From a virus (lineage: Duplodnaviria; Caudoviricetes): DNA of 53,266 bases. Shown piece by piece: positions 3,687-32,426 of this stretch. A model generated the notes under the pieces. It was given only the letters and a program-made list of their open reading frames with translations, did no database searches and was not told the origin of the DNA. The stretch is taken from positions 1 through 53,266 of IMG/VR virus record IMGVR_UViG_3300032307_000452. The stretch is one strand, 5' to 3'. Each line of letters starts with the position of its first letter. The first letter of the stretch is position 1. Position numbers and translations under genes: made by a program.

Positions 3687-3689
3687 ATA

Positions 3690-3726
3690 CAAATATACGA
3701 AAAAAGCTTGGAATAACCAAGCTTTT
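3690..3726 (-). promoter_or_regulatory. Terminator-like hairpin overlapping a Bacteroidota-type promoter (copy 1)
   Basis: Minus strand AAAAGCTTGG-TTATT-CCAAGCTTTTTT-CGTATATTTG: 10-bp stem plus U-tract, and CTTG-N20-TATATTTG. Confidence 0.7.
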
Positions 3727-13157: not shown

Positions 13158-16100
13158 TTAACTATCGAAGAAAATACCTAAAATTTGATTTAGTGGTGCG
13201 AATGCTCCTGTTAGTTTGTAAGTATTACCATTATATACAAATACAATACCTTCATTTGGTACAATTTTTTCAAATCCACCCAAAGCGTTTAATCGTTGTA
13301 ATTCTAATTTTAGTTTTTCAACTTTTTTAGGGTCACCACTTGCTTTTACTTGAGATATTGTTGATTGTAAACGAGCTACCATTTGTCTTTTGGCAGAATC
13401 AGGATTTGCCGTAAGTACAGATTCCATAAATGATAAAACATCAGCACCAACACCTAAAAATATCTCCTCAAATCTCATTAGATTTTGTTTTGATATCTTT
13501 TGTTGGTCTTGCTTATCTATTTGTTCAGCCCATGCCCTTAATTTAGGGTCTTGTATTGTTGCTATTCTAAATGATTTATCACCAAATGCCCATCTCTTAA
13601 CTAATCCTATTTTTTCTTGTGCATCCAATTTCTTCCCATCCTTTTCTACAAATTTACTCCACCAAGCCTGATGATATTCAGCTACCCCATCATTATCAGA
13701 TAATCCAAATTCAGATTGTAATTTAGAAATCATTCCCAAATACTTTCCTTGTAATTTAGCTAATTGTTCTGATTTTGGTAACTTAGTCATTGGTGGTCCT
13801 TGTATTGTGTACTTAGATTGAACATGTGCGTTTACCTGCTTAATCATTCCACCTAATATAGATGCAGCTTGTTGATTTTCACCAATTATATTACCAGCAT
13901 CATCATACTCAAACGTACCATGAAATACTAATAGAGGTTGATTGTATGGAATTACATTTACCGAAGTTGGATATATTACTTCCAAATTCATAAAACATGC
14001 ACCATCCTTAAAAATCTTTTGTCTTTGTGGTTCTGATAGGGCTGCTATTGCTTTCGATAAATCTTGCATAGCGAAGTTGTAAGCATCGGTTAATCCACCT
14101 CTACCAGCAAACTTATCTGCTACTTGTCCAATGGTCATAGCACCAGCTCCTTTGCTCTTTAGATGTGATTTGTTACGAGCTGCAACTAATCTACCATTTA
14201 CCCAACTAACTGCCAATGCCTGTCCATCAGTCTTCTCTCTAGTCAATTCCAAATCACCATTAAGTGCTTTAGTTACAATTGTTTTAAGGTCACCAAATGT
14301 AAGGTTCATTTCAATATCAAATGGGTGATTCATGTGACCATAAGCCCCACCTTCTAATAATAAAGATTCATTTATTGATTCTTTTTTCAAACTTCTTTTT
14401 TGAAGAACCAATTGATTAATTTGAGAAAATATATCTGCAATATCTTTATCTAATTTCTTTTCATCTGCACTCATCGGAGATTCGATATCAACATTTGAAT
14501 AAAGTTTTTTCTTTTTTGCAATTAATATCTCTGCTTTTTTAAGTAAATCAGATTTAACTTTATCTAAATCCTTTAAGATTTCAGATGAAGTAGCTTCAGT
14601 TACAGTTTCAAATGCGGATGGCGTTTTGATTTTTCTCCAACCACCACCAGGTGTTCTAAATATTCTAGCAGGTATTGGTAAAGTAGAACCTATTGGCAAT
14701 TGTCTTTCATATCCCTTATCAACGTGTATAATTTTGGTTATGAATTGTTTTGTTTTATTATCAGAACCAACCAATTCAACTTCCACATTTACAGTTCTTC
14801 CACCTACTTTCATTTTACCAGCAAATAATTGTCCTTTTATAAATGCTTCTTTTAAAAAATCAGTTGGAGATTTTAAATCATATTTTCTAATACGATTATA
14901 TTTGTCTACTACATCATTATGTGTATCTATTGGTAAACCTTGGTCTATTGCTTGTTTCTTTTCTCTTTCACTTGGAATTTCATCAAAAAAATCCCAACCG
15001 TCTAATCCATCTAAATAATATTTTTGATTATCATAATCTTCCCAATCGGAGTTCCATATATATCCAGTAGTAGTATTACCATCCAATGGAAATGCACCAT
15101 TGCCAGTAGCTTCCTCTACCGGTTTATATTCTTCACTACCATCACCATTTAATTTAGATTTTAATTTCTTAGTATCTTTTGAATCCGGTGCTCCATTGAT
15201 ATATCCACCAGGTAAAGATACCCCCACACCGGCTCCACCACCCAATCCCATTTCATCTAGCATTTGAGCTTCCACTTCATCTATAATTTCATTTATATCT
15301 TCTTTTGAAATTATTTGTGGTTTTTGATTTTTAGGAAGTTCCCAAAATCTTTTAGGTTTTTTTTCTGGATTTGTTCTATATATTTCTTCCCAATCTTCTA
15401 CCTTATGTGGGTCATCAGCTGGATTTAATGTACTTTGCACTACATTCTTAATCTTATAATACGCTTTTCTAAATTGAGTTTCGGTATCTTTTCCCTTACC
15501 TCTACCTCTCATAGAATCTGCTTTTGGTATATCCAATTGAGTATATCCACCTTGCTTATACCAATTTTCAGGTTTAGCTGTATTTAGTATTCGTTTTTGT
15601 CCATCCCCAACAAATGACATATCGGGCTCATCACCAGCTGTCATACCAGCATTACTAGCAGCTTCTTTTAATTCCTCTTTTTTAGGAATTCTAAATGTTA
15701 CAGCTTTCTTACCATTGATTGTTGGCATTCCCCATTCATCAGTACCAATCGATTTAACAATAACTTTTTTATTTTTAAATTTACCCATTAAAATTTGGTC
15801 ACCAACCTTAACATTCAATTTGATTTCTTCATTAATACACTCTTTTAATTTCTTTAATTTAAGAGTAATTAATTTGAATATTTGGTCATCAAACTTTGGA
15901 TATGCTTTTGTGAAATTCTTTTTTCTTTCTTCTTCACTACCAGCACTCAACCAATAACGAACATCAGTACCACTAATTGCATTAGGTTGAGCAGGTGCAG
16001 CATAGACATATCCTTTATCTAAATAAGGTTCTTCTACTTTACCTTTATATGGAGTGAAATATTTACCACTTAAACGTGATGAATCCTTTTCACCTACAAC

Positions 16101-16439
16101 AGTTATAAAACCAGTTGTATCTGAATCGTATTTATTAAGTATTTCTTGTGGAGCGTATGGGTTTTTGATTTGTACTATCTTATTCGAAGGAATACCAAAC
16201 ATTTTTTGCATGATGGCTTTCTTTTCTTTAAACCCAAATGGAGATTTTTTATTATCGGTTACATCGGAAGTTCCTATATAAACATTATCCCTTCCGAACT
16301 TCTTAACTAAATGGTCATAAGTTGCGTAATGGCCCTTATGAAATGGTTGAAAGCGGCCGGAATAGACAACAACTACTTTGTCCATCTCTGCCGCTTCTCC
16401 CAATATTGTTTCTACCAAAAATTTTGCTAATCCCATCAT
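13158..16439 (-). CDS. Multidomain protein: HxGH nucleotidyltransferase + low-complexity middle + KxDG ligase-like domain
   Basis: N-terminal YSGRFQPFHKGH and ISGTDVR (cytidylyltransferase-like/NMNAT fold). C-terminal EKTDGQ...NLEVIY...EGIVF...YKLTG resembles covalent nucleotidyltransferase motifs I, III, IV and V. Confidence 0.7.
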   Translation of the reverse strand: MMGLAKFLVETILGEAAEMDKVVVVYSGRFQPFHKGHYATYDHLVKKFGRDNVYIGTSDVTDNKKSPFGFKEKKAIMQKMFGIPSNKIVQIKNPYAPQEILNKYDSDTTGFITVVGEKDSSRLSGKYFTPYKGKVEEPYLDKGYVYAAPAQPNAISGTDVRYWLSAGSEEERKKNFTKAYPKFDDQIFKLITLKLKKLKECINEEIKLNVKVGDQILMGKFKNKKVIVKSIGTDEWGMPTINGKKAVTFRIPKKEELKEAASNAGMTAGDEPDMSFVGDGQKRILNTAKPENWYKQGGYTQLDIPKADSMRGRGKGKDTETQFRKAYYKIKNVVQSTLNPADDPHKVEDWEEIYRTNPEKKPKRFWELPKNQKPQIISKEDINEIIDEVEAQMLDEMGLGGGAGVGVSLPGGYINGAPDSKDTKKLKSKLNGDGSEEYKPVEEATGNGAFPLDGNTTTGYIWNSDWEDYDNQKYYLDGLDGWDFFDEIPSEREKKQAIDQGLPIDTHNDVVDKYNRIRKYDLKSPTDFLKEAFIKGQLFAGKMKVGGRTVNVEVELVGSDNKTKQFITKIIHVDKGYERQLPIGSTLPIPARIFRTPGGGWRKIKTPSAFETVTEATSSEILKDLDKVKSDLLKKAEILIAKKKKLYSNVDIESPMSADEKKLDKDIADIFSQINQLVLQKRSLKKESINESLLLEGGAYGHMNHPFDIEMNLTFGDLKTIVTKALNGDLELTREKTDGQALAVSWVNGRLVAARNKSHLKSKGAGAMTIGQVADKFAGRGGLTDAYNFAMQDLSKAIAALSEPQRQKIFKDGACFMNLEVIYPTSVNVIPYNQPLLVFHGTFEYDDAGNIIGENQQAASILGGMIKQVNAHVQSKYTIQGPPMTKLPKSEQLAKLQGKYLGMISKLQSEFGLSDNDGVAEYHQAWWSKFVEKDGKKLDAQEKIGLVKRWAFGDKSFRIATIQDPKLRAWAEQIDKQDQQKISKQNLMRFEEIFLGVGADVLSFMESVLTANPDSAKRQMVARLQSTISQVKASGDPKKVEKLKLELQRLNALGGFEKIVPNEGIVFVYNGNTYKLTGAFAPLNQILGIFFDS

Positions 16440-16469: not shown

Positions 16470-16859
16470 TTATTCTTTTACAACTTTCATCCCTTCAGAT
16501 GATTGCTGCATTTGTTGTTGTGCTAATTGCTTACGTGTTGGTGCACCTGGTTGATATTGAATTGTTCCATTTTGTAAATCAATTCTACCTTGTGGGTATT
16601 TTTCATCCAATGCATCAATTACTTCTTTAAGTTCACCATTTAACATTTTAAATTCATCTTCACCCTTTTCTAAGAAATCATCCATTCTAACAAGTTCTTC
16701 GTTCATTTCTTTTTTACGAATATGAATTTGTCCAAATTCTAAAATTAAATTTTGAATCTTTTGATTAATATCTGTGATAGATTTCAATGTTTCTGCCTCA
16801 ATTTTAGCAGTTTCTATCGTAATTTGTTGTTGTGTAGGTACATTATCTAAACCTGCCAT
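16470..16859 (-). CDS. Small coiled-coil protein (paralog of 21383..21640)
   Basis: Contains LDEKYPQGRIDLQNGTIQYQ. Confidence 0.75.
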   Translation of the reverse strand: MAGLDNVPTQQQITIETAKIEAETLKSITDINQKIQNLILEFGQIHIRKKEMNEELVRMDDFLEKGEDEFKMLNGELKEVIDALDEKYPQGRIDLQNGTIQYQPGAPTRKQLAQQQMQQSSEGMKVVKE

Positions 16860-16878: not shown

Positions 16879-16897
16879 TTTGTATATATAAGTATAT
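16879..16897 (-). promoter_or_regulatory. Late-type motif variant (ATACTTAT), 19-bp repeat of 13122-13140
   Basis: Exact repeat located in an intergenic gap. Confidence 0.55.
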
Positions 16898-16903
16898 TCT
16901 TTT

Positions 16904-17644
16904 TTATTTTTTGAACACAGAAACTCCTTTTTGTTTTACAACTTCACCAGCACAATAGTTAGCCCAATCAATCGATATTCCAATATCAGCCGAATCCAAA
17001 TATCGAGCTACAAATCCAGCAACAAAAGTATCACCTGCTCCACTAACATCTGCATTTTCAATAGGTGTAACCGGATATGTTGTATGTTTATATATTGTTC
17101 CCATCTTATCAATTGTGCGTATGATTTTATCAAACAACCAATCGTTATCTCGTATCACATCTTTACTAACTTCCCATTCCAACCGGTTCACCTTAATGAA
17201 TTTCAAATCCTTACACCAATCTCCCAATTTCTTTTTGGTATCTAAAATAACAAATGGATGCATAGATGCTATATGAGATATATCTTCTTCTGTTAAAAAT
17301 CCTTTGCAATAATCTGAAATTATAATCGCATCGTATTGAGATATATCGGATAATTTGGATATATCAATTCTACTAACCGAATCGTTTTCATCCACTCTTA
17401 AATAAAGTTCGTTTGTATCTTTATTAACATAACGAGTCTTCACAATACTACCATTATCAGAAAATATATTTGTTTCAACTCCCATTCCTCTTAAATTGTT
17501 TACAACATTTGATGCCATACCCAATCCATAGGTTTCATTAATTGGAATAAAAACAGGCCCATTTCCTTCCGGAGATTTACGTTTTGATGTACCATATACG
17601 AAAATATCAGTACAACTTTCTCCTATAACTAATACTTTATTCAT
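16904..17644 (-). CDS. rfaE1: PfkB-family sugar kinase, HldE/RfaE domain I-like (heptose-7-phosphate kinase)
   Basis: VLVIGESCTDIFVYGTSKRKSPEGNGPV resembles the HldE RISPEAPVPV segment. Also KTRY, LRVD, IISDYCKGFLT and DVSGAGDTFVAG. Confidence 0.85.
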   Translation of the reverse strand: MNKVLVIGESCTDIFVYGTSKRKSPEGNGPVFIPINETYGLGMASNVVNNLRGMGVETNIFSDNGSIVKTRYVNKDTNELYLRVDENDSVSRIDISKLSDISQYDAIIISDYCKGFLTEEDISHIASMHPFVILDTKKKLGDWCKDLKFIKVNRLEWEVSKDVIRDNDWLFDKIIRTIDKMGTIYKHTTYPVTPIENADVSGAGDTFVAGFVARYLDSADIGISIDWANYCAGEVVKQKGVSVFKK

Positions 17645-18023
17645 CGTCTAAAAGTTTTGTAGTACTAAACCCTTCTATTTTATTGAAAAATTTTATTTCT
17701 TTTGCATGGTTACCACCAATAATAGGTTTATACATATATTCATCTCCAATTACAAATATATCAGGCTTGTAAGTTTCTAAATGTTTTCTTAAAGATTCAT
17801 CACTATCAAATACTACAATTTTATCAACATCCTTTATTTGCAGTAAATTAAATACTCTTTGTCCTTCGGTGTGAAAAGGTCTACCTTCACCTTTCATTTG
17901 TTTAATTCGTTCATCTGAATCAATACCTATCATTAAATCTCCTAAAGATTTTGCATAATCTATTAATTTAAAATGCCCATAGTGTAGAACATCAAAACAA
18001 CCATTTATCCAAACCTTTTTCAT
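17637..18023 (-). CDS. rfaE2: HldE/RfaE domain II-like heptose-1-phosphate nucleotidyltransferase
   Basis: NGCFDVLHYGH, GIDSDERIKQMKGEGRP, GFSTT. Overlaps the kinase gene. Confidence 0.85.
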   Translation of the reverse strand: MKKVWINGCFDVLHYGHFKLIDYAKSLGDLMIGIDSDERIKQMKGEGRPFHTEGQRVFNLLQIKDVDKIVVFDSDESLRKHLETYKPDIFVIGDEYMYKPIIGGNHAKEIKFFNKIEGFSTTKLLDDE

Positions 18024-19171
18024 TATAAGAATTTTTCTAATTCTTTGATTACCATTTCAGATGTAATACTTTTAGTACACTCAAATTGCCTTTCAGTACC
18101 TTTATGGTCAGGACACCAATTCCAATCACCAGGATCCAATCTAAGTCTATTAAAGCAACCTTCACATTTTCCTTTTGGTGCAGCGATTCTTATACAATCT
18201 TGCATTTCAGCCCAATCGTATGAGAATCCACTAATCAATACAGTTGGAACATTTAATCCCCAACTTAACCAACTCAATCCACTACCAATACCAATAAATG
18301 CTTTTGATTTTAGCATTTCATCCATAACTAATTCCAATGGTCCATTTGGATGTTTTATAATACCTGTTGGTAATTTATTACCCATATAGTTATCACCCTC
18401 TTTAGATAATAATTTTACTGTATATCCTCTATTGTTTAACCAATCAACAACATCTTGCCACCCATTTGGATTATTCCAAAATTTAGATTGTGCAGTACCA
18501 TGAATTCCAATACATACTTGTTTATAATTTGGGTCTATAAATGGTGCTCTTTCTTTTAGTTTAGGTTTTATTTCTTTATACTCCAATCCTAAAATATCGG
18601 AACACATTTTTTGCATAGTTTGTGTTTTCGGGTCTATTGGATTTTTATAAATGTTAATTGTATTATCTTCATTATAAAATAAACCTATTGCATACATTGC
18701 ATATAAGTTTTCTACATTTGTGCCAGGAGATACAAATTCTATATCTGGATATCTACTTTCAAACATAGAATTCATAAAAGTAGAAACAACCATTTTACAA
18801 TTATGAACTTTTCCAAATTCTTCAACGTATGGTATCCATGCTAAACTATCTCCCAATGCTTTTGAATCTAATGCAACATAAACTCTTTTATTTTCAGGAT
18901 TATATAAATGTTCAAACCAAAGTTTTCCGTTTTCATATATTTCAATCTTCCATTCTATAAAATATTCTAAACTACATTTAGTCCACATATTATTACATAT
19001 AGAAGTGTTATATAGAATTCTTCCGTTTTTATTATTTATAAATTTAACAACATATTCTGCTTGTCTATTTCCTTTAATTTCAACAAAAGCACCTCTTACA
19101 AAATGAAAATAAACTTTATTATCAATTTCAAATTTATTATTTATATTTTTAATTAAATTATCGTAAATCAT
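18023..19171 (-). CDS. Aah/TibC-family (BAHT) protein O-heptosyltransferase
   Basis: N-terminal beta domain FHFVRGAFVEI, catalytic ALGDSLAW, VCIGIHGTAQSKFWNNPNGW, FIGIGSGLSWLSW, VLISGFS, and iron-finger CEGC-x13-C-x11-C (WCPDHKGTERQFECTKSIT). ATG at 19171 overlaps the upstream TAA (TAATG). Confidence 0.9.
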   Translation of the reverse strand: MIYDNLIKNINNKFEIDNKVYFHFVRGAFVEIKGNRQAEYVVKFINNKNGRILYNTSICNNMWTKCSLEYFIEWKIEIYENGKLWFEHLYNPENKRVYVALDSKALGDSLAWIPYVEEFGKVHNCKMVVSTFMNSMFESRYPDIEFVSPGTNVENLYAMYAIGLFYNEDNTINIYKNPIDPKTQTMQKMCSDILGLEYKEIKPKLKERAPFIDPNYKQVCIGIHGTAQSKFWNNPNGWQDVVDWLNNRGYTVKLLSKEGDNYMGNKLPTGIIKHPNGPLELVMDEMLKSKAFIGIGSGLSWLSWGLNVPTVLISGFSYDWAEMQDCIRIAAPKGKCEGCFNRLRLDPGDWNWCPDHKGTERQFECTKSITSEMVIKELEKFL

Positions 19172-21342
19172 TAATTCCAAGTTTTAACTGTTAAATCCAA
19201 TAGTGAGTATCCTTCTGCCTGTTTACTATACATTTTATTTGTAGTATATCGTTTCATAGGATGGTGATAGAATACATGATTAAACCAAAGGTCACCAACA
19301 TCCCAACCACAATCGTTCAATCGGTCCATCCACCATCCTTTAGTTCGGTTTGGTATTAGATAACAATGTGCAAGGTCTTGATTGTGTGCAGTTTGTGAAA
19401 ATAACTCATCAACTTTTATTTTTTCTCTTGATGGGTTATCTGCTAATGAAATAAAATACACATCATCTCTTTCTGATATGAAACATGCTTTGTGTACTAT
19501 ATTAACAAACTCCTCTAAACCAGTGTAAATAAATGCATCAGCTTCGAATATTAAAGTGTAATCATAATTTTCTTCATCTATGGTTTCTAATGCATTTCTA
19601 TGTGCCAAATAACATCCATAATGTCTACCAGTCATCCAACCCAAACCAGCACCAGGGTATAATTCACCTGGTTTATTATCTTTACTAATATGTTCAGGTC
19701 TTCTACAATTTTCAGCAGGTGCTAATCCTTCATAAACCTCATTTACAATTGGTTGATAATCTATTCCGTATTTTGATAATTGTTGTAATGATTGTATAGA
19801 AACCCTTTCCCTCATATCATCAGGTCTAGTCAGCATGTGTTTTACTTGTATTCTTGGTTTTTTTCTTACAAATGAACGAAACCCTTGCTGAAATTGTCCA
19901 TAAAAATATTCGTTTGCTGCTCTCGTAACTCCTTCAAATACACCATAATCATCACCACTAATAATACCACCCGGCTTTACTTTATTATACCAAACTTGCA
20001 AGTCTTCCATTAAGGCATCGTATGAATGCCCAGCATCAATCATAATAAAATCAATACTACTATTTGTAAAATTATTAGATGCGTTTTTGGATGTATCTTT
20101 TATTGTATTAAATTTATTATAGTTATCAGATAATACTGTGTTATCTACGAACTCATAAAATATATCACCATTAAAAGTATTAACTATATTTTGATGTAAT
20201 TGTTCATCATCAGTCCCTTTCCACGTATCAATAGATGTGAAATTAATATCCTTACCAGATTCTTTTATTTTTGTTGCTAAATGATTTGTAGATTTACCAA
20301 ACCATGCCCCAACTTCTACAAATGTTTCACCACCAACTGCCGAATCAACTACATTATTATATAATTCAGAATACGCAAACCAACCAGGTATTTCGTTAAA
20401 TTCAGGTTGTAACTTCTCTAAAATAATTCTTTTAGTTAATTTCAAATCATCATCTATATAAGTAACTAATTCATTATTATCGTATGTATCTAAATAAGTG
20501 TGTAATTTTCTGAATATAGATGGTAGTTTGTAACTCAATGCTTCTTTAACTGATAATGGATTTAATTCTAACTTAGAACTAAAATAAAACATATCACTTG
20601 CTGCATAAAACGTATCTACATCATTTCGTTCACCCCATATAATACAATTATCAGGTTTGAATTCCATCAATGGTTTCCAATAGTTTTCAAAGTTCATAGC
20701 TTGGTTTCCCACAAAATGAAATTTAATTTTATATTTTTCCAATTGCCTAGCTATTTGAAATATTTCAGCTTGATTCTTACCAGGTGAAAATAATCCAACC
20801 ATCAATATATGTTTCCAATCGGATTCAAACCCTAATTCAGTTTTAGCCAATTGCTTATCAAATTCATATTCTTCTATTGGATATTCCCATATTTGAGTTT
20901 CAATTCCCAATGTATCAAATCTTTGCTTACTCCATTCGGATACTAATACATATCTATCAGGATGATATACTATTTCGGATGGATTTGTAAACGAACCATG
21001 TGTTGATGCTACTATAAAATAGTTTCTATCTTTTGAAAATAATTTTTCAACTATATCAATTGGTAAGTCAAATTCAGGTATTTCTTGAAAGTGAATAATA
21101 TTTGGTTGAAATGTTCTAATAACATCAAATATTGCACGTTTGTTATCACCTAAAGTATGAACAGGTACTAATGATTTAATTCTATTTTTTTGAACTACAT
21201 ACGCATCTCCACCACTATTATTTATTTCAACAACTTCTATTTCAAAATCGTTTATAAAGTGTTTTATTTGTTTGTATGTGTATTGTGGTTGTCCGCCCGT
21301 AGAAAGATGTGGACAGACATAAAGTAACTTTTTCTTTGCCAT
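19171..21342 (-). CDS. GT-B (GT4-like) glycosyltransferase / class I SAM methyltransferase / GT25-like fusion
   Basis: PHLSTGGQPQY...GKNQ...ELNPLSVKEAL (GT4-like); FVEVGAWFGKST...IDAGHSY...KPGGIISGDDY (Methyltransf_24-like); YGCYLAH...IFEADA...AHCYLI (GT25-like). ATG at 21342. Confidence 0.8.
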   Translation of the reverse strand: MAKKKLLYVCPHLSTGGQPQYTYKQIKHFINDFEIEVVEINNSGGDAYVVQKNRIKSLVPVHTLGDNKRAIFDVIRTFQPNIIHFQEIPEFDLPIDIVEKLFSKDRNYFIVASTHGSFTNPSEIVYHPDRYVLVSEWSKQRFDTLGIETQIWEYPIEEYEFDKQLAKTELGFESDWKHILMVGLFSPGKNQAEIFQIARQLEKYKIKFHFVGNQAMNFENYWKPLMEFKPDNCIIWGERNDVDTFYAASDMFYFSSKLELNPLSVKEALSYKLPSIFRKLHTYLDTYDNNELVTYIDDDLKLTKRIILEKLQPEFNEIPGWFAYSELYNNVVDSAVGGETFVEVGAWFGKSTNHLATKIKESGKDINFTSIDTWKGTDDEQLHQNIVNTFNGDIFYEFVDNTVLSDNYNKFNTIKDTSKNASNNFTNSSIDFIMIDAGHSYDALMEDLQVWYNKVKPGGIISGDDYGVFEGVTRAANEYFYGQFQQGFRSFVRKKPRIQVKHMLTRPDDMRERVSIQSLQQLSKYGIDYQPIVNEVYEGLAPAENCRRPEHISKDNKPGELYPGAGLGWMTGRHYGCYLAHRNALETIDEENYDYTLIFEADAFIYTGLEEFVNIVHKACFISERDDVYFISLADNPSREKIKVDELFSQTAHNQDLAHCYLIPNRTKGWWMDRLNDCGWDVGDLWFNHVFYHHPMKRYTTNKMYSKQAEGYSLLDLTVKTWN

Positions 21343-21349
21343 ATTGTAA

Positions 21350-21381
21350 CAAATATACGAATTTATTTTTGAATTACCAAA
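21350..21381 (-). promoter_or_regulatory. Bacteroidota sigma70-type promoter for the glycosylation cassette
   Basis: TTTG-N20-TATATTTG (-33/-7 consensus TTTG / TAnnTTTG). Confidence 0.75.
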
Positions 21382-21382
21382 T

Positions 21383-21640
21383 TTATTTTTGATAAACCAC
21401 TGTACCCTCAACCAAATCAATTTCTCCGTTTGGATATTTTTGATTTAAATCCGCTAATATTGAATTTAATTCTTTATTTGCAGTAGAGTATTCAGATTCA
21501 ACAACTGCTATAATTTTTTTTATTTCAGCTATATCTAAATTCAATTGCCCAGCATTTACAATTAATTCGTTTTTGCGATTATTAAGTTCTTTTATTTTAG
21601 ATAAAACGCTTTCTTCTAATTTTTCGGTTTGTAATTCCAT
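21383..21640 (-). CDS. Small coiled-coil protein (paralog of 16470..16859), possible fibre-associated chaperone
   Basis: Contains LNQKYPNGEIDLVEGTVVYQK. ATG at 21640. Follows the tail fibre gene. Confidence 0.75.
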   Translation of the reverse strand: MELQTEKLEESVLSKIKELNNRKNELIVNAGQLNLDIAEIKKIIAVVESEYSTANKELNSILADLNQKYPNGEIDLVEGTVVYQK

Positions 21641-21664
21641 AATTTTATTATTTATTGTTTGTAT

Positions 21665-21672
21665 ATAAATAT
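21665..21672 (-). promoter_or_regulatory. Putative late promoter core ATATTTAT
   Basis: Recurrent intergenic octamer. Confidence 0.55.
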
Positions 21673-21680
21673 ATAAAAAT

Positions 21681-24600
21681 TTATAAAGAACCACTTATTT
21701 GTGCTTCTAATTGGTTTACTTTTTGAGATAATTCTTGCACAGCTTTCCACAATACAAATACTAATTCGGTTTTAGCAATACCAGATGTCATCCATTGTTT
21801 AGGTCCTTCTGGATTCTCTGGGTCTTCGAACCAATCATAATCTACGAATTCTTCAAATCCACCTGCTTCTAATTCTTCCGCAATTATACCTATTTGTTGA
21901 GGTCTTACTTCCGCATCCTTATCTACTTTCCAATAATAAGTTCGTATTGGTACATTATTTATACAATCTAATACAGATGGATGTTCCCAATTTTCAATTT
22001 CTTCCTTATATCTTCTTGCTGAAGTATTTCTACCCACCCTCCAAGTAGATAATGATATTTCCATACCTCTAATAGTACCACCACCAGGACCACTAACATT
22101 TGTTAATATAACAGCCGGTCTAAGTCCACCATCATTATAGGTTGTTATGTAACCAGGGCTACCAGTTGCAGTATTCCAAGAAAATTGACCCGTACCCATC
22201 TCAATATTATTACCATTGGTTACAAGCTTACCTGCTCCACTTGCAATATCAATAGCAGTACCTCCAGATGTTCCTGTTAATTGTATTGTGGTATTTGCTG
22301 TATCACCTTCTAGTGTAATAAATCCTTTTCCATTTAAAATTGGTATAGATGCAGAGTCCTCTCTCCTTAATCTAATAAATCTATTTTGTGATGTTGCTAT
22401 CTGAATACCTTTATTTGTTAATTCAACAACGTTTACGTTTGTAGCTGCTACAATTGCCGGAGTTGGTATGTATGCGTTTACAGCGAAAGAATATCCAGAC
22501 CCTAAGCTATATTGATATCCCTGAATTTTTACAAATAATTTAAAAACATAATCAGTAGCTGATGGATTTGGTGCACTAAATTGGAAGCTTCCTACATATC
22601 CATAAAAATTTGCATAACTTTCATCGAACCCACCATTCCAATAATCTGCAGCTACTGTAACCTCTTGTAGTATAGTTGTGGAAGTAGAATCATAAATTCG
22701 GTAACCCCAATAAATGTTTGCATATCCTTCTGCATTAAATGCTTGTATAACAGAATAAACGGATGGCCAAGAAACAGAAGAATCGGTATATGTACCAGCC
22801 GATACGTTGATTGTTTGACCTGAACTTTCCCATACTTCATCCAACGCATTTGGTAGAGATGGAGATGAATCATACGCAGATACAGCATCACTACTAAGGT
22901 TTATACCCGTTCCAGCCAAATCCGTTAATTCACCGAAGTTTACTTTAAGACGAGTTTCTCCACTTTCTCTAATTGCTATACCAGGAAGTGATGGGTCAAG
23001 GAAAATTCTACTACTAGCATCTCTAAGAATATTATTTTCAACAGTCCAACTACCAATAGAACCACCAGTTGCGTTAATTTGTCCAGATATAGTTGCATTA
23101 GAAACAACTAAACCACTAGCACCCAATGAAAAGTTAGGTCCTATTAAACTACCAGTTCCGTTTGCATCAGCTGTCAGAGAAATAGCAACAGCCGGACTTG
23201 TTCCAACCGTTACCGTATCGGTAAATGTACCAGTTGCTGCGGATATATTTCCTGCAAATGAACCATTAGCACCACTTATATCTCCCTTAAAGAATGCATT
23301 ACCAGATGTGTCTATGTAGAAATTTTTAGAGTGTATAGAACCTACTGCAGCTAATGTAATACCAGCTCCAGCATTAAAGCCTGAAGTATTTTTTGTACCA
23401 CTATAAATTGCATCACCTGCCAATTCCCAACCCCCAACAGTTCCATCATTGTGGTCATCTCCATTATCAAATGCACCAATCTTACCACCATCTCTAGCAG
23501 TTGCTACGTTTTTAATTCGTATGTTACCAGCAATTTCTAAAGCAGAACCATCCCACTTAAGATATCTATCACCTCCAGTATTTACAATAGAAAATCTACC
23601 AGTTGTACCACTTGCACCAGCTTCATATATTCCTAAGAAAATACCAGGTCTTTCATACCCAATAACAGCTCCACCAGGATTCAATGTTGTACCAGATGTA
23701 CCAGATGTTCCTACCGTTGCACTTTGTCCGATTGCAATATATGGGTCAGGTCTACCACCAGAAATTACAATGTTTGCAAATGCCCCAGTTCCATCTTTTG
23801 TACCAACATTAATTGTATTTTTAACATAAGACTCTTCAAATATTGCAATTTTAGCTGCTACGAAGAATTCTTGGTCACCTAAATATTCCCACCAATCATT
23901 AGTACCATCAACAGTTGGAGCATGGTAGTTTACTAACACACCATTTTGGTCATAAGTTGCAGGACCTGAACCACTAATTGCTGCATAATATTTTACAGTA
24001 TCTTGTGTTGCTAAATAAGTAACCGCATCTCTACGATTATTAGTAGTTTCAACTTGCCCTATATAATTAATAGTAGGGCTCCATTCACCTCTCATCACAA
24101 TACCAGGTCCAACTGCTCCTTCAAATTGAACTGATAAAGATTGTGTTTTAAAGAAAGTTTGTCTACCTTCACAATTTATCGCATATACTATTTCAGCTGT
24201 TGTGTTTGTTTCAGGATCATCCCATGCGGTAATACCAGGCATTGATGCAGGTGAGCCGGTTAATTTACTTCCTACAATTATATTATCATTATCTAAATGT
24301 ACATAATTTGGTTTTGATGTTACCTCTACTTGATATTGATATTCATAAGATGAACTACCATACGCATCTATTTGTACACCAGTAAATCCAGAAGGTTTAT
24401 TTGTTAATTCATAAGTACCTCTATATGCTCTTATTATATTTGAAGTAGTTCCCAATTCAACTTCACCAGACACTCTATATACAACAGATGAATTTTCATT
24501 TTGCATCTTAACATCATAAGGAGCAGGTTCGGTAAATTGAACTGCAAATGATTGTGTTATAAATTGAGTTTGTCTACTTGGAGGTCTACTAATAAAATCC

Positions 24601-27600
24601 GTTGCTACTTGATTTGAATAACCTTCGAAATCAATTTTATACACAATCTCACCTGTTTTATTAATAGCTGGTTTCTCCCAACCACTAATATCAGCCATAC
24701 CAGCAGGAGTTGTTGTTACTCTATTAGTTGGTAATGAAATCCAAGGTGATTTATAAAAAATAGATGCAGATGAATATCCTAAAATACCAATTAAGTTTTG
24801 TAAATAATCATAATCCGTATCTTGTGGTGCTGGATAATTTCCTGTTGTTACATTTATTAAAGATGTTGTACCTTTATATGTTGGTAATTTAATAGATGTT
24901 CCAGACAAATCAGTATCAAACAATTCTGCTTTAATCGATGTATTTTCATTTGTTGCTGCTATTTTATATGCATCAGCTCCAGCTTTAATACCGGCAATCG
25001 TTAATTGTCCTTCTGCTCTATATGGATTTAAAATAGAAGATGTATATGGATTACCATCGGTTATTTTTACTTTCCAAGTTTTATTTTCTTCAGGACCAGC
25101 AGCATCGGTACCTGGTATAAAGAATACTTTTTCAGTTATACCAGCTCCTTCAAAATAAGGTCCATCGTATAATGTTTCAGAACCATCAGTATCAACAAAA
25201 AATAAACTAAACCATGCAGAACCTGTTGTGTTAAATGCAGTTGCTTTTAATTCAACATCTCCTTCAGGTGAAACTCTATACCCATCCCTATCATAATTTA
25301 TTGTATATGGATTAGCTTTTAATTCTACAGTTCTAGCATTAGGTACTGATACATTCTTTGTAAACGTTTGAGTACGTGTATAGATAGATGATGTATATTC
25401 ATGCCCACTTCCTAATGCAAATGGATAAACTTGAATTGTATATACTGCACTTGCTGATACATACGGATAATCAAATCTATTGTAATTTATAGTTGCCGTA
25501 CTTAATGAAGATGACGAAAGTGAACCAGTTCTTATATTCCAAATAGAACCACCTCTAGTTTCAATTGAATTAATTCTCCAAGTACCAGGTGCTATCGATT
25601 GGGTTGTAAATCTTAAAAAATCTTCCCCTTCTTTTACTTGTATTGTTGTATTAGTTGGTGCATATCCCACAGGTGTTACAAATCCAACCTCATCCGCAGT
25701 TAATGTTGCATTTTGAGGTGTTATTAATATTTGAATTGGTGGAGGTCCTTCTAATACTTTAGTATAGTTTACAATTACACTTGCTGTATAAATCGAAGAT
25801 GTGTAATATGGATGAATAATTAATGGATACTCAATACTTCCACTCAAATCTGTCATATTTGATGAAGCACTTACGATTAATGATGCTGTGTATGGCGTTC
25901 CAAAGGATGATGTAAAATGTACATTACCTGCTTTAACTCTATTTTCTATTATTGAAGATGTTGCTATATAGAATGTACCATGTGTATCTAAATTATCCAA
26001 AACACCAGCACTAGAACTAAATGCTAAATACCTTGAACCCTGCTTTAATTTAATATCAGTTATAGATGGTACATAATCATTAACAATACCTCTTGAATTT
26101 GCACCTAAAGTTACAGCTATTGGATTTACTTCAAATACGATACTTTCATCACCTTGCTTACCTTCAGGAACAATTGTAAATGTTTTATCAATAGTAACCG
26201 ATGCCGATGTCCAAGGTTCAGTATATGTAAATGCTAATGTTAAAGTTTTAGTTTGATTTAAAGCACTTCGTACATTACCACTTATTACTTGTGATGGTAT
26301 TATATTTTTATTTTCATCAGTTGCAGAAACAGTTATGGTTGGATGTAAACTTTGTGTGTGATAATACATCCAATATTCAGGAACCCAATCTTTGTTGATT
26401 GACATTGATGGATATACCTGAAATGATGCTGTTACGGATTCGATTTCAGATGCCGCCGTTCCTCTTTTTGCAAAAGATGCCGTAGCAAATGCAAATGATG
26501 GTCTAAATGTTTTTTCTGTTCTTGGATTAATTGTGAATGAATCTACATTATATGTTATAATACCACTATCCAATCCATCCTGCAAATCTTCTAATATAAT
26601 AGATGCTACAACAGAGCCTGATGTTAAGTATGCAGGTCCACTTGCTGCAGATTGTGATGAAATCAAATATATTGTTCTTCTAAAATCAATCGAATCTCTA
26701 TTAAAAGTTGCGTTATAATTTATTTCCCCACTACCCAACGAACCAGTACTTAATCCATATATGTATCTACTTGATGATGCGTATTCTAAGTTTACAAACT
26801 TCTCAGCTCCATCTGCTGAGCGTGATATGATATGTAGTTGCTTATCAGGCCAACCCTTTTCAGGTTTTGTTGTACTACTTAATTCGATATCGTTTACACC
26901 ATCTATGCGAACTGCTTGTAATTCTAATGAAGCAGTACTACTATTTCTAATTTGAGTTCCTCTATAAGGTCTAATCAAATAGTTTACACCACCAAACCCA
27001 TCCAATACTCTACTGAATATTATTGTATCTGTAAAGCCTTCAACTTCACCAGTAATTTTAATTAATTGTACAGTCTTATCAGTTCTTGAACCTGTAAAGT
27101 TACCAACTGTCATTGTTGGTGCATCGGATGTAATATCACTAAGTAAGCCCGGATATCTTTGACCTGTAAATGATGCAGTATAATCAGAGCCAGATAATTC
27201 ATTTCCATCAAAATCAAAAGATTGAGATGTATATGTTACAGAACCAGTTAATAAATTTTTTGTTACTGTAAATCCTACCACAGTTGGTGGAACAGGTTGA
27301 GAACCAGAATCAAATTGAAATTGTAAAGAACGAGGAGTAAATACCAATCCTTTTTGTATTCTTTGTATATTACCTCCATTAAATGTTTTACTTTCTTCAA
27401 CTAAAACCGGAATGTAATTATTATTTATATCATAAAATTCAAATCTATAATCAAAAGTTTCTTCTGGTAAAGTTCTTGGAACAGTCTGAATAAATGTAAT
27501 TTCATCAGGTGAATATGCTGTTTCTTGTGAAGCTCTTAAACTAACATCCGATATATACCAATCGTTACCTTTAACTTCAAAATATAATTTTGTATTGTTA

Positions 27601-29024
27601 GATTCTTCAGCTTTGAAATTTGCAGTTATTTGATTTTTTTGTAATAAAGAATTATCAGATGTTACAGTTACAATATTTTTTTCTACTTGAACAATTGTAG
27701 GAGAACCATTAACACTACTGTTTTTAGAACCACTTAAAAATGCTCTTATATAATTATTTGGATTTACAGCACTAGTTCCAATACGTGTATTAAACGTAAG
27801 TGTATATTCTATATTTTTAGTAACACCTAAAGAAGCTGTTGTGTGGAAGTAATTAGAATCAATACTATCTAATTTTACTGAATTATATAAATAATTTTGA
27901 TTAAATGCAGTTGTAATATTATTTGATGCAGTAATCCAATAATTTTTAAAATTACTTGTATCAAAAATACCATAAAATTCTTCATTTTTTACTTGAGATT
28001 CCAAATCCCTAAGTATTTCATTTGATTCAAGTCTTATTTCTTGAATAAATTGATAATCTGCTAAATCCGATTGTGATTTTCTAAATATTTTTACCCTAGA
28101 AACATCTCCAACAAATGTAGTTAAATCGGAAAGTACAATTTTAGCAAATGAACCAGTCAATGCTGTTTTTAAATTGTTTACACCTTCTATATAATTAAAT
28201 GAGGCAGTATATCCTTCATCTAAAAAGTTTGCAACAATTGATGAACCAAGTGATGATGCTTCGGTATATGGATTTCTAACTAATACCTGTTTATTGTTTA
28301 TTACACTATCAACTACTGCATTATATCCTAATGCTGGTACATTAATACTATTACCAACTATTGAACCAGTCCAATTTGTTGAATCTTCAATTTCTAATAA
28401 ATACGTTGTTGGTGCATTGTAATCATTTATGGATTCTCCAAGCCTTGGTGCTTGTGCTTGACCACTTAATGAACCTGTTTGTACAACAATAGTTGTTACA
28501 TTATTAAAAATAGGTTTTACTATTTCGGTTATGGTAACTTCAGGTCTTCTGTAAAATCTTACTTTATCTTCATTTGATAATAATCTGTTTACTTTAAATT
28601 CCTTTTCCCATTTAACGTTGTAAACGTTTTTCCATTCTTCTGGTATTGGTAGTACTACACCACCTTCATCAATATAGGTTTTTAATTCACCTAATACCGT
28701 TATTTTAGCAGTACCAATTGGAGTATCTTCATAAACATAAACAGCAACTAATTTTGATGTACCTTCATAATATTCAGGAACACCATTACCTGGCTCATAA
28801 TAAATTGGATTGCCATTAACATCTAATATTTGAATCTTTATTTCAGTAGATTCCATAAGATGCTCCGAACCTTCAATCAAAAACCCATTTTTACCACCAG
28901 TGAATGTATCTTTAAATTCAGTTATTTTAAAATATGTTGAATTTGGATTAGTATCCACCAAAAATGTGCCAAACGATGTAAGTGGTTGGGTAAGATTTTC
29001 TGCGAATTTTTTTATTATTGCCAT
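21681..29024 (-). CDS. Giant tail fibre/spike with C-terminal peptidase S74 intramolecular chaperone
   Basis: 2447 aa, beta-rich and S/T/G-rich. Fibre-type segments (ISGQINATGGSIGSW). C-terminal TSARRYKEEI...IGIIAEEL...LWKAVQELSQKVNQLE. Confidence 0.85.
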   Translation of the reverse strand: MAIIKKFAENLTQPLTSFGTFLVDTNPNSTYFKITEFKDTFTGGKNGFLIEGSEHLMESTEIKIQILDVNGNPIYYEPGNGVPEYYEGTSKLVAVYVYEDTPIGTAKITVLGELKTYIDEGGVVLPIPEEWKNVYNVKWEKEFKVNRLLSNEDKVRFYRRPEVTITEIVKPIFNNVTTIVVQTGSLSGQAQAPRLGESINDYNAPTTYLLEIEDSTNWTGSIVGNSINVPALGYNAVVDSVINNKQVLVRNPYTEASSLGSSIVANFLDEGYTASFNYIEGVNNLKTALTGSFAKIVLSDLTTFVGDVSRVKIFRKSQSDLADYQFIQEIRLESNEILRDLESQVKNEEFYGIFDTSNFKNYWITASNNITTAFNQNYLYNSVKLDSIDSNYFHTTASLGVTKNIEYTLTFNTRIGTSAVNPNNYIRAFLSGSKNSSVNGSPTIVQVEKNIVTVTSDNSLLQKNQITANFKAEESNNTKLYFEVKGNDWYISDVSLRASQETAYSPDEITFIQTVPRTLPEETFDYRFEFYDINNNYIPVLVEESKTFNGGNIQRIQKGLVFTPRSLQFQFDSGSQPVPPTVVGFTVTKNLLTGSVTYTSQSFDFDGNELSGSDYTASFTGQRYPGLLSDITSDAPTMTVGNFTGSRTDKTVQLIKITGEVEGFTDTIIFSRVLDGFGGVNYLIRPYRGTQIRNSSTASLELQAVRIDGVNDIELSSTTKPEKGWPDKQLHIISRSADGAEKFVNLEYASSSRYIYGLSTGSLGSGEINYNATFNRDSIDFRRTIYLISSQSAASGPAYLTSGSVVASIILEDLQDGLDSGIITYNVDSFTINPRTEKTFRPSFAFATASFAKRGTAASEIESVTASFQVYPSMSINKDWVPEYWMYYHTQSLHPTITVSATDENKNIIPSQVISGNVRSALNQTKTLTLAFTYTEPWTSASVTIDKTFTIVPEGKQGDESIVFEVNPIAVTLGANSRGIVNDYVPSITDIKLKQGSRYLAFSSSAGVLDNLDTHGTFYIATSSIIENRVKAGNVHFTSSFGTPYTASLIVSASSNMTDLSGSIEYPLIIHPYYTSSIYTASVIVNYTKVLEGPPPIQILITPQNATLTADEVGFVTPVGYAPTNTTIQVKEGEDFLRFTTQSIAPGTWRINSIETRGGSIWNIRTGSLSSSSLSTATINYNRFDYPYVSASAVYTIQVYPFALGSGHEYTSSIYTRTQTFTKNVSVPNARTVELKANPYTINYDRDGYRVSPEGDVELKATAFNTTGSAWFSLFFVDTDGSETLYDGPYFEGAGITEKVFFIPGTDAAGPEENKTWKVKITDGNPYTSSILNPYRAEGQLTIAGIKAGADAYKIAATNENTSIKAELFDTDLSGTSIKLPTYKGTTSLINVTTGNYPAPQDTDYDYLQNLIGILGYSSASIFYKSPWISLPTNRVTTTPAGMADISGWEKPAINKTGEIVYKIDFEGYSNQVATDFISRPPSRQTQFITQSFAVQFTEPAPYDVKMQNENSSVVYRVSGEVELGTTSNIIRAYRGTYELTNKPSGFTGVQIDAYGSSSYEYQYQVEVTSKPNYVHLDNDNIIVGSKLTGSPASMPGITAWDDPETNTTAEIVYAINCEGRQTFFKTQSLSVQFEGAVGPGIVMRGEWSPTINYIGQVETTNNRRDAVTYLATQDTVKYYAAISGSGPATYDQNGVLVNYHAPTVDGTNDWWEYLGDQEFFVAAKIAIFEESYVKNTINVGTKDGTGAFANIVISGGRPDPYIAIGQSATVGTSGTSGTTLNPGGAVIGYERPGIFLGIYEAGASGTTGRFSIVNTGGDRYLKWDGSALEIAGNIRIKNVATARDGGKIGAFDNGDDHNDGTVGGWELAGDAIYSGTKNTSGFNAGAGITLAAVGSIHSKNFYIDTSGNAFFKGDISGANGSFAGNISAATGTFTDTVTVGTSPAVAISLTADANGTGSLIGPNFSLGASGLVVSNATISGQINATGGSIGSWTVENNILRDASSRIFLDPSLPGIAIRESGETRLKVNFGELTDLAGTGINLSSDAVSAYDSSPSLPNALDEVWESSGQTINVSAGTYTDSSVSWPSVYSVIQAFNAEGYANIYWGYRIYDSTSTTILQEVTVAADYWNGGFDESYANFYGYVGSFQFSAPNPSATDYVFKLFVKIQGYQYSLGSGYSFAVNAYIPTPAIVAATNVNVVELTNKGIQIATSQNRFIRLRREDSASIPILNGKGFITLEGDTANTTIQLTGTSGGTAIDIASGAGKLVTNGNNIEMGTGQFSWNTATGSPGYITTYNDGGLRPAVILTNVSGPGGGTIRGMEISLSTWRVGRNTSARRYKEEIENWEHPSVLDCINNVPIRTYYWKVDKDAEVRPQQIGIIAEELEAGGFEEFVDYDWFEDPENPEGPKQWMTSGIAKTELVFVLWKAVQELSQKVNQLEAQISGSL

Positions 29025-29116: not shown

Positions 29117-29290
29117 ATGAAGAAATATGCAATGATACAAATTGATGCGGATGTGCATCAGATGTTAAAAGAATTTTGTAAAGATAAAGGATATAAAATA
29201 AGCGGATTAATTGAAACGCTTATAAAAGAAAAGGTGGAGTCCTCAAAGAAGACCCCACCCAAAAATATACTACCAGTTGTTAAAAATTAA
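29117..29290 (+). CDS. Ribbon-helix-helix (CopG/Arc-like) DNA-binding protein, 57 aa
   Basis: Below the ORF-track cutoff. Hand translation MKKYAMIQIDADVHQMLKEFCKDKGYKISGLIETLIKEKVESSKKTPPKNILPVVKN fits a strand-helix-G-x-x-x-S-helix pattern. Confidence 0.75.
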   Translation: MKKYAMIQIDADVHQMLKEFCKDKGYKISGLIETLIKEKVESSKKTPPKNILPVVKN

Positions 29291-32200: not shown

Positions 32201-32426
32201 GGTTTGTACATTCTGTCAACAGCCAACTAATCTCTTTCACCAATTCAGGACTCATTTCCAACTTAGCATGTGCAATATCACCTGCTAAATAAATAATTGA
32301 ATCTTCCGTTCCTCTTTTCTTAATTTCATCAAACATAGCATAGAATACTTCTCTAAACTCTTTATGTCTTTTGATGTTACGGATGTGTATATCCGCAATG
32401 TGATAAATCCTTTTTAATTTACTCAT
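29280..32426 (-). CDS. Fused Mre11/SbcD nuclease - Rad50/SbcC ATPase (gp47-gp46 fusion)
   Basis: Phosphoesterase motifs ADIH, AGD, GNHD, FHG, GDIH. Walker A APNAQGKSS, coiled coil with CKFC zinc hook, signature CSGME, Walker B LVIDEG, ISH. Confidence 0.93.
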   Translation of the reverse strand: MSKLKRIYHIADIHIRNIKRHKEFREVFYAMFDEIKKRGTEDSIIYLAGDIAHAKLEMSPELVKEISWLLTECTNHCETIMIAGNHDCNMNNADRLDVLTPIVEALKLPNLTYLRDTQVYAIGDVDFAVFSIFDNKDNWPKANTLFGNKKIALFHGPVDNSTTDVGYVVSSRHFTTDIFDGYDLALLGDIHKRQEMISSSGCKVVYAGSLVQQNFGETLDKHGFLVWDLDTMTYEEVDIKNDYGYYTLDVDGGIVPDVTDMPLYPRLRVRVKNTDTADTKRMMADITAKYGVDDFTIIRTDTFNTKKTNDREARLEVDSVGDINHQNSLIGEYIERMLPFVTKEDLAGIEKINRDINSRVQPSELQRNISWKPVKFDFSNMFSYGEDNIIKFDKVNGLMGLFAPNAQGKSSLFDAISFCLFDKCSRAYKAAAIMNNRKQDFHCQLDFTIDGVLYHIRREGRTINKGRNVKVDVDFWRDGDSGRESLNGTERRDTNQIIEQYVGRYEDFVMTALSLQGNNALFIDKSQSERKDLLAQFMGLDMFDKLYETATNDIKDVNALIRNFKRTDFTTELAQKETDLNEKKIEYGELDSEKTELENRKSDLEEQIVGLSQQIVPIQGNLDIDELNRKLTKIDSELSTWEDSKVVKTQKLTEATELVRKAKETIDSKATINDIGIDVAYSNYQREQKSLIEAEKVYSTLKSQLTSAEEKINHLDKHEYDPNCKFCCDNEFVKDAMRAKEALPELKRFVENATIQCVGIQQTLDSWEGIEEQFLQWKEWNDEHKRLIVVRERLEGDIRTADSKIELLQTQRDSVNADIQRYNDNEETITKNQALDIQIQNVRRLKQGVETQISDVNKLMLKLMSDVGATKTYIDNMKAKMEEVKELETKNQLYTFYLDAVKKDGVPYELISKALPAIENEVNNILGQVVDFSISMDTDGKNINARIVYEDQEWALEMCSGMEKFISGLAIRVALINICNLPRPNFLVIDEGFGTLDADNLSSLFMMMQYLKTQFDFIWVISHLEQMRDIVDGLIEIKKVDGFSKINF

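Follow-up and report, generated by a model that had tools for sequence, protein, structure and literature searches.

What does a tailed bacteriophage modify with an enzyme of the TibC/Aah (BAHT) family, and with which sugar? The question is raised by a cassette of four genes in an uncultured phage, IMG/VR virus record IMGVR_UViG_3300032307_000452. The whole record (53,266 bases, about 29% of the genome by CheckV completeness) was analysed and is referred to here as the window. All four genes are real and lie on the minus strand in the order fusion enzyme, transferase, nucleotidyltransferase and kinase (Table 1). A first, sequence-only reading held that the phage makes nucleoside diphosphate (NDP)-heptose with enzymes of its own and uses adenosine diphosphate (ADP)-heptose to modify the adjacent Ser/Thr-rich fibre. 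The BAHT-type transferase, the genes and the promoter of that reading have stood; its self-sufficient heptose pathway, its acceptor and its donor have found no support in the form proposed. On balance the cassette probably represents a phage-encoded, cytoplasmic O-glycosylation system for the phage's own fibrous proteins.

The transferase passes the curated TIGR04414 equivalog model with 277.3 bits against a cut-off of 200 (E 1.8e-82), a result confirmed on the DNA, and aligns with TibC (4rap) over residues 21-374 with E 2.6e-52, in agreement with the Aah/TibC-type assignment of the sequence-only reading. The possibility that it might instead group with the lipopolysaccharide (LPS) GT9 enzymes WaaC and WaaF was not borne out, the model for LPS heptosyltransferase I giving merely 25.3 bits. 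The LGD and AQSKFWNNPNGW motifs and the four cysteines picked out in that reading are present and fall on key residues of TibC. D108, T226, K230 and W301 of the phage enzyme correspond in the alignment to TibC Asp-110, Thr-226, Lys-230 and Trp-305, and C336, C339, C353 and C365, a putative iron finger, to TibC Cys-339/342/358/370. According to excerpts from the TibC study (PMC4358343), Asp-110 is the catalytic base, Thr-226 and Lys-230 contact the beta-phosphate, Trp-305 contacts O4 of the heptose and the four cysteines hold iron. In an alignment of 63 rows the equivalents of Asp-110 and Lys-230 and all four cysteines are invariant (63/63), that of Thr-226 is kept in 61 (Ser in the other 2) and that of Trp-305 in 62. 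Judged by its sequence, the transferase is a true member of the BAHT family, apart from the GT9 enzymes of LPS synthesis.

Close relatives of the transferase are carried by at least 134 IMG/VR contigs. The comparative sample comprised 80 viral loci of 134 confirmed relatives, 45 loci from genomes or metagenome-assembled genomes (MAGs) and 3 plasmid loci, and a quick maximum likelihood tree (LG+G4) was built from 63 rows de-replicated at 85% identity, with Shimodaira-Hasegawa-like approximate likelihood ratio test (SH-aLRT) support only. The window transferase sits in a phage clade (SH-aLRT 99) that is nested in a clade of 46 rows (SH-aLRT 100) on a long branch of 0.59. This larger clade holds 28 phage enzymes, 4 from MAG contigs with an adjacent GT4 gene and 14 bacterial enzymes, from Methylococcales, Burkholderiales and others. 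The 17 rows outside it are AIDA-adjacent enzymes of E. coli and Salmonella, an alphaproteobacterial/Pandoraea group and tandem pairs from Selenomonadales. In the Selenomonadales and their relatives (L117-L127, L132) the tandem consists of two diverged TibC-family genes that form two sister subclades and have no collagen-like neighbour. Among phage records overall, 4 of 50,697 gave a transferase match.

The neighbours of the bacterial members of the 46-row clade point to the acceptor. On bacterial chromosomes the clade gene is set among housekeeping genes, beside a small open reading frame (ORF) that Pfam labels as collagen repeat. A proline-free (G-T/S-S/A)n ORF lies within 1.2 kb at 22 of the 30 clade loci in genomes and at 0 of the 15 loci of other clades; all 45 genome loci were counted, the criterion was at least 6 consecutive G-X-Y triplets within that distance, and membership of the 30 was decided on tree position or on 37-59% identity with the window transferase. 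The X position is nearly always Thr or Ser and the Y position Ser, Ala or Thr, with almost no proline. Many of these loci (L090-L116, L126, L131; Methylococcales, Polaromonas, Burkholderiaceae and others) are two-gene islands made up of a TibC-family enzyme and a proline-free (GTS)n protein of 100-330 residues, and these islands may represent an unrecognised bacterial glycoprotein system.

The same partnership is seen in other phages. At two phage loci (L053/L054) a 976-residue (GTS)n fibre lies directly upstream of the enzyme and ends in a Peptidase_S74 domain, the same type of C-terminal chaperone as that of the window's fibre. In Microcystis phage Mel-JY01 a long (GTS)n ORF stands on the same strand 1.7 kb upstream of a 1226-residue GT4-methyltransferase-BAHT fusion. 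Among relatives of the window phage with contigs that extend beyond the capsid gene, G008 has a 655-residue (GTS)n gene with 79 triplets on the same strand after the capsid gene, and G007 has (GTS)n genes of 1086 and 898 residues (173 and 109 triplets), again after the capsid gene. A GTS DNA pattern was found in 7 of 9 BAHT-bearing viral records, and a reversed control pattern gave 0 matches; Flavobacterium phage immuto was found to have neither a TibC-type enzyme nor the GTS pattern. Taken with the bacterial loci, these sequences point to proline-free (Gly-Thr/Ser-Ser)n collagen-like segments as the acceptor. As a separate observation on Mel-JY01 (PP395634.1), the plus-strand (Gly-Thr/Ser-Ser)n ORF (L002:2-3052) has a globular C-terminus and runs off the start of the linear record, and the GenBank record annotates reverse-strand ORFs there (PEVP-type repeats) plus a short 3' coding sequence instead.

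Within the cassette the successive genes overlap by 1, 1 and 8 nucleotides (TAATG, TAATG and ATGAATAA), so that the four overlapping, coupled genes of the sequence-only reading are confirmed and the transferase is shown to be translationally coupled to the GT4-methyltransferase-GT-A fusion. The start of the fusion is most plausibly the ATG at 21342; the longest ORF begins with a TTG at 21420 but runs into the upstream gene. Of the parts first proposed for this protein, GT4 and methyltransferase are both above cut-off in Pfam (Glycos_transf_1, 42.1 bits against 26.4, at the N-terminus; Methyltransf_24, 65.5 against 26.3, in the centre, with a TylF match besides), whereas GT25 is seen at the level of fold only, PF01755 giving the C-terminus 18 bits where its cut-off is 24. 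Modelled on their own, the final 224 residues (mean predicted local distance difference test score, pLDDT, 84.6) adopt a GT-A fold that comes closest in the PDB to COLGALT1 (GT25), a human collagen galactosyltransferase, and to Mimivirus R655 (E ~2e-6, TMq 0.60-0.64); a conserved E-x-D motif, FEADAF, is present. Because COLGALT1 is nearest at fold level, 'GT25-like' is a fair label even with Pfam below cut-off. When the entire fusion was compared with PDB sequences, the sole match was a marginal one to a methyltransferase (E 0.081). The survey of co-occurrence suggested with the sequence-only reading has been made, and the transferase does travel with the fusion: in 70 of the 75 related loci the two genes lie immediately side by side.

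The glycosylation of the phage's own fibrous proteins that we favour would run as follows. The TibC-like enzyme would start the glycan on Thr or Ser of these proteins, most likely with D-glycero-D-manno-heptose taken from an NDP-heptose, and its preferred acceptor would be a proline-free (Gly-Thr/Ser-Ser)n segment. As the left end of the record truncates the capsid gene, an equivalent (GTS)n gene would lie just outside the window, past the capsid gene and beyond the left edge; the giant 2447-residue fibre would offer one short GTS site only. The GT4 and GT-A domains of the fusion would then extend the glycan and the TylF-like methyltransferase would O-methylate it. The kinase and nucleotidyltransferase would boost two steps of NDP-heptose supply, together with GmhA and GmhB of the host, and the donor nucleotide may be other than ADP, the equivalent of TibC Arg-286 being replaced.

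The points that weigh against this reading concern, in turn, the supply of the sugar, the donor pocket and the acceptor. As to supply, the labels RfaE-I and RfaE-II given to the kinase and nucleotidyltransferase stand as the best NCBIfam matches, but both scores are below cut-off: the kinase has 91.4 bits against 345 on rfaE_dom_I (TIGR02198) and is ~70 residues shorter than that profile, and the nucleotidyltransferase has 95.6 bits against 181.5 on rfaE_dom_II (TIGR02199), still its top model ahead of TagD at 51.6. The best PDB sequences for the nucleotidyltransferase are ethanolamine-phosphate and glycerol-3-phosphate cytidylyltransferases. Searches for GmhA in four records of relatives and for GmhB in five (the same four plus the window) found neither, a 100%-complete relative of 266 kb being included in both cases; there is no SIS/GmhA-type domain among the window ORFs and no HldD match over cut-off. 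With GmhA and GmhB missing, the phage would not be a maker of activated heptose alone, and the pair must rely on the isomerase and phosphatase of the host. What had been read as the phage's own NDP-heptose enzymes thus comes down to the kinase and nucleotidyltransferase steps. Homologous pairs are also present in 34 cyanophage and marine virus records, and the transferase search gave no match in any cyanophage, so the pair looks like a general heptose-supply module.

Other features of the pair bear on a role in heptose activation. All of the 7 best PDB chains for the kinase model (pLDDT 88.9) are Burkholderia HldA (E from 5e-18 to 2e-16), and another family appears only at 1e-11; the GAGD catalytic motif is present and 'SGAGDT' is invariant in 13/13 aligned sequences. 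The nucleotidyltransferase carries HYGH and GFSTT motifs. It lacks the Arg of STTR5, a motif described for promiscuous heptose nucleotidyltransferases (PMC11573728), position 5 being F, I, L or V in 15/15 readable sequences. The pair is present or absent as a unit: of the 77 loci with enough DNA (3 further loci being too short), 35 have both genes, 42 have neither and none has a single one. Contigs from two sequencing runs of different studies join 16904/16910 to 18023/18024 and so skip exactly the pair, and in relatives lacking it the transferase gene is followed immediately by the homologue of the 16470..16859 gene. Of 121 sampled Bacteroidota genomes, 60 exceed the cut-off of rfaE_dom_I and 77 give a match with E <=1e-40, which makes host heptose supply plausible but patchy; all three proteobacterial genomes with a BAHT-collagen pair have an rfaE_dom_I match over cut-off.

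As to the donor, excerpts from the TibC study (PMC4358343) report that Arg-286 reads N1 of the adenine and that its Ala mutant has activity abolished or largely diminished. At this column the window enzyme has Val-282, and V, I, L, M or T stands in 46/46 rows of the clade, against Arg in 17/17 other rows. A stereo-determinant column (the position of TibC Pro-300/Ser-294) is Gly in 45 of the 46. The clade is, as far as these columns tell, a distinct subfamily with a re-tooled donor pocket. Since Arg-286 is lost clade-wide, the donor nucleotide may not be ADP, and the original proposal of ADP-heptose is not supported in that form. Protein glycosylation with cytidine diphosphate (CDP)- or uridine diphosphate (UDP)-heptose, or with a different sugar, is a tentative explanation that cuts across the others, and we consider it possible rather than probable. 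It would account for the two altered columns and for the 42 loci that do without heptose genes, and it is in keeping with the cytidylyltransferases that are the nearest solved sequences to the nucleotidyltransferase; CDP- and UDP-heptose do exist, with roles reported as unknown (PMC11573728). It sits less well with the retained beta-phosphate and heptose contacts (the Lys-230, Thr-226 and Trp-305 equivalents), with sugar-activating genes that, where present, are HldA-like and RfaE-II-like and lack STTR5, and with the HldE-type kinases encoded by the bacterial genomes that have the enzyme-collagen pair.

As to the acceptor, 8 of the 30 bacterial clade loci have no collagen neighbour, several of them being short contigs, and the tree that helps to define the clade is a quick LG+G4 one with an arbitrary root on the AIDA-adjacent pair. 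There is no long (GTS)n gene within the window, and its presence beyond the edge is deduced from relatives only. In a reverse test a degenerate (Gly-Thr-Ser)4 DNA pattern was sought in IMG/VR and gave at least 60 distinct contigs; among the matches listed, to which all counts of this test refer, the enzyme lies within 10 kb in 6 of 60. Because proximity picked out so few, whole records were then searched, 48 in number, with 10 contigs of <=14.8 kb left out. A TibC-family protein is present in 14 of these (13 over cut-off), against the 4 of 50,697 phage records overall, and 34 have no enzyme, including 3 of the 6 records that are >=80% complete. The (GTS)n-enzyme association is, in these sequences, strong but not obligatory.

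A wider proposal, which we regard as doubtful at present, is that the virus- and collagen-associated branch of TibC-like enzymes constitutes a new kind of protein glycosylation, directed at Thr/Ser of (GTS)n, perhaps with an NDP-heptose other than ADP-heptose, and with the glycan replacing hydroxyproline. The acceptors would be triple-helical fibres made by phages and by certain Methylococcales and Burkholderiales, in which the glycan would take the place of hydroxyproline and stabilise or shield the fibre. If this is true, a physiological role would for the first time be assigned to CDP-/UDP-heptose and to the viral enzymes of heptose synthesis.

The acceptor of the sequence-only reading was the adjacent fibre. 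That this Ser/Thr-rich protein, or other virion proteins, might be the main acceptor through beta-structure motifs, as in autotransporters, and not through GTS repeats, now seems unlikely to us. The arrangement of the genes speaks for it: aah and tibC adjoin their substrate genes, and the order fibre, small gene, fusion, transferase is kept across related loci. The Ser+Thr content of the fibre, 19.7%, is among the highest in the window. Its GTSGTSGTT site and a second run, GASGTTGRF at residue 1803, are the only two G-(S/T)-(S/T) runs of at least 3 triplets in the window (ORFs of at least 100 residues). Of 19 aligned homologous fibres, 15 have the first site and 4 have lost it in phages that retain the enzyme, so that it can hardly be the sole target, which is also what a recognition mode independent of GTS would predict. 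Against beta-structure motifs, Pfam found no AIDA-type repeat in the fibre, the closest bacterial relatives of the enzyme pair with small collagen-like genes and not with large beta-helical proteins, and other enzyme-bearing phages have a (GTS)n fibre as the neighbour. No autotransporter is encoded in the window, the neighbours of the cassette being the Peptidase_S74 fibre and small coiled-coil genes. With a single site of three triplets in the fibre, the comparison favours (GTS)n segments.

The timing of expression bears on a further explanation, that the cassette modifies a host component. The motif before the fusion gene is of a form, TTTG/TAnnTTTG, that we take to be the Bacteroidota primary-sigma consensus. 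The pattern (-33/-7; TTTG-N20-TAtaTTTG type) is not enriched across the window, where 5 were found against 3.8 expected, and the argument for a promoter rests therefore on position and on conservation in relatives: the full motif TTTG-N17-21-TAnnTTTG stands before the fusion gene in 42 of the 47 distinct relatives. Its 12-mer core, TTCGTATATTTG, has 3 exact copies in the window, each just upstream of a gene, namely those for a DNA methylase (3690), the fusion (21350) and a primase (33377). A second motif, ATAYTTATR, occurs 12 times, always on the coding strand and in 9 cases in short intergenic gaps, and precedes structural and flanking genes (e.g. 8512, 10791, 13130, 16455, 16887, 21664, 35166, 48837). 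From their placement the two look like early/middle and late promoter classes respectively, and the host-type promoter first proposed at 21350-21381 is upheld as a class distinct from the late-type motif of the flanking genes. There is no terminator-like site between the upstream late-type motif and the cassette, so that late expression by read-through is also possible; one terminator-like site, at chance level, was found inside the transferase gene. A scan for sigma-70-type promoters was uninformative (29 sites against 38.3 in shuffles).

An early-looking promoter of host sigma type, shared with primase and DNA methylase genes, would suit a cassette that acts on a surface protein, lipopolysaccharide or capsule of the host, for superinfection exclusion or takeover, and not on the virion. 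GT4 and GT25 families, to judge from NCBIfam matches, are common in LPS and glycolipid synthesis, and the cyanophage homologues of the kinase and nucleotidyltransferase are annotated as of carbohydrate-kinase and ADP-heptose-synthase type; genes of this kind in cyanophages have been interpreted as belonging to LPS synthesis. We nevertheless consider action on the host very unlikely. All four cassette proteins lack hydrophobic, membrane-spanning segments (maximum KD19 <=1.13), the phage is of the virulent, T4-like type and the window shows no genes for lysogeny, and the enzyme recurs beside fibre or collagen-like genes in unrelated phages and bacteria; the BAHT family is, in the excerpts of PMC4358343, protein-directed. 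Glycosylation of DNA was set aside, since enzymes of this family act on proteins and the window, which covers ~29% of the genome, shows no pathway for the modification of bases.

Glycosylation of the phage's own fibrous proteins has its nearest known counterparts in TibC-TibA and Aah-AIDA-I of E. coli (TIGR04414; 4RAP/4RB4; excerpts of PMC4358343), with which the window enzyme shares family, catalytic Asp, donor contacts and four-Cys finger. In both cases a soluble enzyme is encoded beside genes for fibrous surface proteins. Further traits by which the BAHT family is defined are a dodecameric ring and the transfer of heptose to Ser. The window enzyme differs in being viral, in having no autotransporter nearby and in its coupling to the GT4-methyltransferase-GT-A fusion. 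It belongs to a separate clade in which Arg-286 is lost and Gly occupies the Pro-300/Ser-294 position, and the partners of that clade are (Gly-Thr-Ser)n collagen-like proteins, not AIDA-type beta-helices. The kinase and nucleotidyltransferase resemble HldE, or HldA + HldC, in being a split pair of the same two folds with the kinase nearest HldA; they differ in scoring far below the equivalog cut-offs, in the short kinase, in being optional, in lacking STTR5 and in having no isomerase or phosphatase alongside. The pairs of T4-like cyanophages (P-SSM2, S-SM2, S-CAM1, P-TIM68 and others, in the 34 records) have a homologous short kinase of 32-44% identity and an adjoining nucleotidyltransferase, but as no TibC-type transferase match accompanies them, heptose in cyanophages would feed other transferases. 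Viral heptose biosynthetic enzymes are mentioned, and their role called unsolved, in a 2024 commentary (PMC11573728).

COLGALT1 (GT25; 9evj, 8zgc), the nearest structure to the C-terminal domain of the fusion, also shares with the proposed system the idea of sugars on collagen-like triple helices. The likeness is at fold level only (12-14% identity at the E value given above), and COLGALT1 acts on hydroxylysine, whereas in the window system a GT-B enzyme would attach the first sugar to Thr/Ser. A glycosylated collagen-like protein is known in BclA of the Bacillus exosporium. Phage glycosyltransferases have been proposed or shown to decorate virion proteins of their own phage in mycobacteriophages, where the targets are capsid and tail-tube subunit C-termini (Freeman et al. 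2023, as cited in excerpts of PMC12619734); no BAHT or heptose genes are mentioned in those excerpts. A full-text literature search found no paper on a phage-encoded BAHT, on a collagen-like protein paired with a heptosyltransferase, on glycosylated collagen-like phage fibres or on phage Mel-JY01. If the favoured reading is true, phages abundant in fresh water would furnish their own fibres with a methylated glycan built on heptose, by means of an enzyme family otherwise known only from the glycosylation of bacterial adhesins. Virion glycosylation would extend beyond mycobacteriophages, the heptose-activating genes seen in viruses would gain a function, and the small collagen-like (GTS)n partners of the enzyme would point to an unrecognised class of bacterial glycoprotein. 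A soluble, cytoplasmic O-glycosyltransferase with a simple repeat as acceptor would also be useful for glycoengineering, and Microcystis phage Mel-JY01 appears to be a cultured test system.

Table 1. Features of the glycosylation cassette and its surroundings in the window.
Feature	Coordinates	Strand	Basis or remark
129-residue paralogue, flanks cassette downstream	16470..16859	-	late-type motif ATACTTATA at 16887-16895
246-residue short PfkB-fold sugar kinase, closest to HldA	16904..17644	-	model and PDB fold search
128-residue cytidylyltransferase-fold nucleotidyltransferase, best profile RfaE domain II	17637..18023	-	NCBIfam; phrog_7878
382-residue TibC/Aah-family (BAHT) O-glycosyltransferase, phage/collagen-associated subclade	18023..19171	-	TIGR04414 and TibC PDB
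723-residue fusion: GT4 (GT-B), TylF/Methyltransf_24-type methyltransferase, C-terminal GT-A nearest GT25	19171..21342	-	Pfam and model
Bacteroidota-type promoter-like motif TTTG-N20-TAtaTTTG	21350..21381	-	exact match; ends 7 nucleotides before fusion ATG
85-residue coiled-coil-like protein, flanks cassette upstream	21383..21640	-	late-type motif ATATTTATA at 21664-21672
2447-residue tail fibre with C-terminal Peptidase_S74 intramolecular chaperone, possible acceptor	21681..29024	-	Pfam
GTSGTSGTT, fibre residues 1772-1780	23685..23711	-	triplet scan

The two small genes that bracket the cassette are paralogues (BLASTP E 3e-14, 30% identity) with no family match. Both proteins end in ..KYPxGxIDLxxGTxxYQ and both genes are preceded by ATAYTTATA. 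Every gene of the window is on the minus strand, and T4-like head, portal, terminase and baseplate proteins are encoded. By large terminase the phage comes closest, among cultured ones, to Flavobacterium phage immuto (56%) and then to Microcystis phage Mel-JY01 (54%). Near-identical DNA is contained in contigs from freshwater and lake runs and was found in no isolated phage; tRNA genes, a possible hint to the host, were not found in the window.

Several other genes of the window are unusual in their make-up. A 1093-residue protein (13158-16439, minus strand) has an N-terminal nucleotidyltransferase domain resembling nicotinamide mononucleotide (NMN) adenylyltransferase (Pfam and NCBIfam), and its homologues precede the terminase gene in immuto and Mel-JY01; a downstream 'KTDGQA' stretch resembles what we presume to be a KxDG motif of ligases and capping enzymes, a putative reading of our own. 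At 29280-32426 (minus strand) a single ORF of 1048 residues fuses an SbcD-like phosphoesterase domain to an SbcC/SMC-like ATPase, parts that are usually encoded by two separate genes. A SegE-type GIY-YIG homing endonuclease gene lies at 33615-34025 (minus strand), and the C-terminus of the DNA methylase (2367-3692, minus strand) shows a weak match to the DNA-binding domain of I-TevI.

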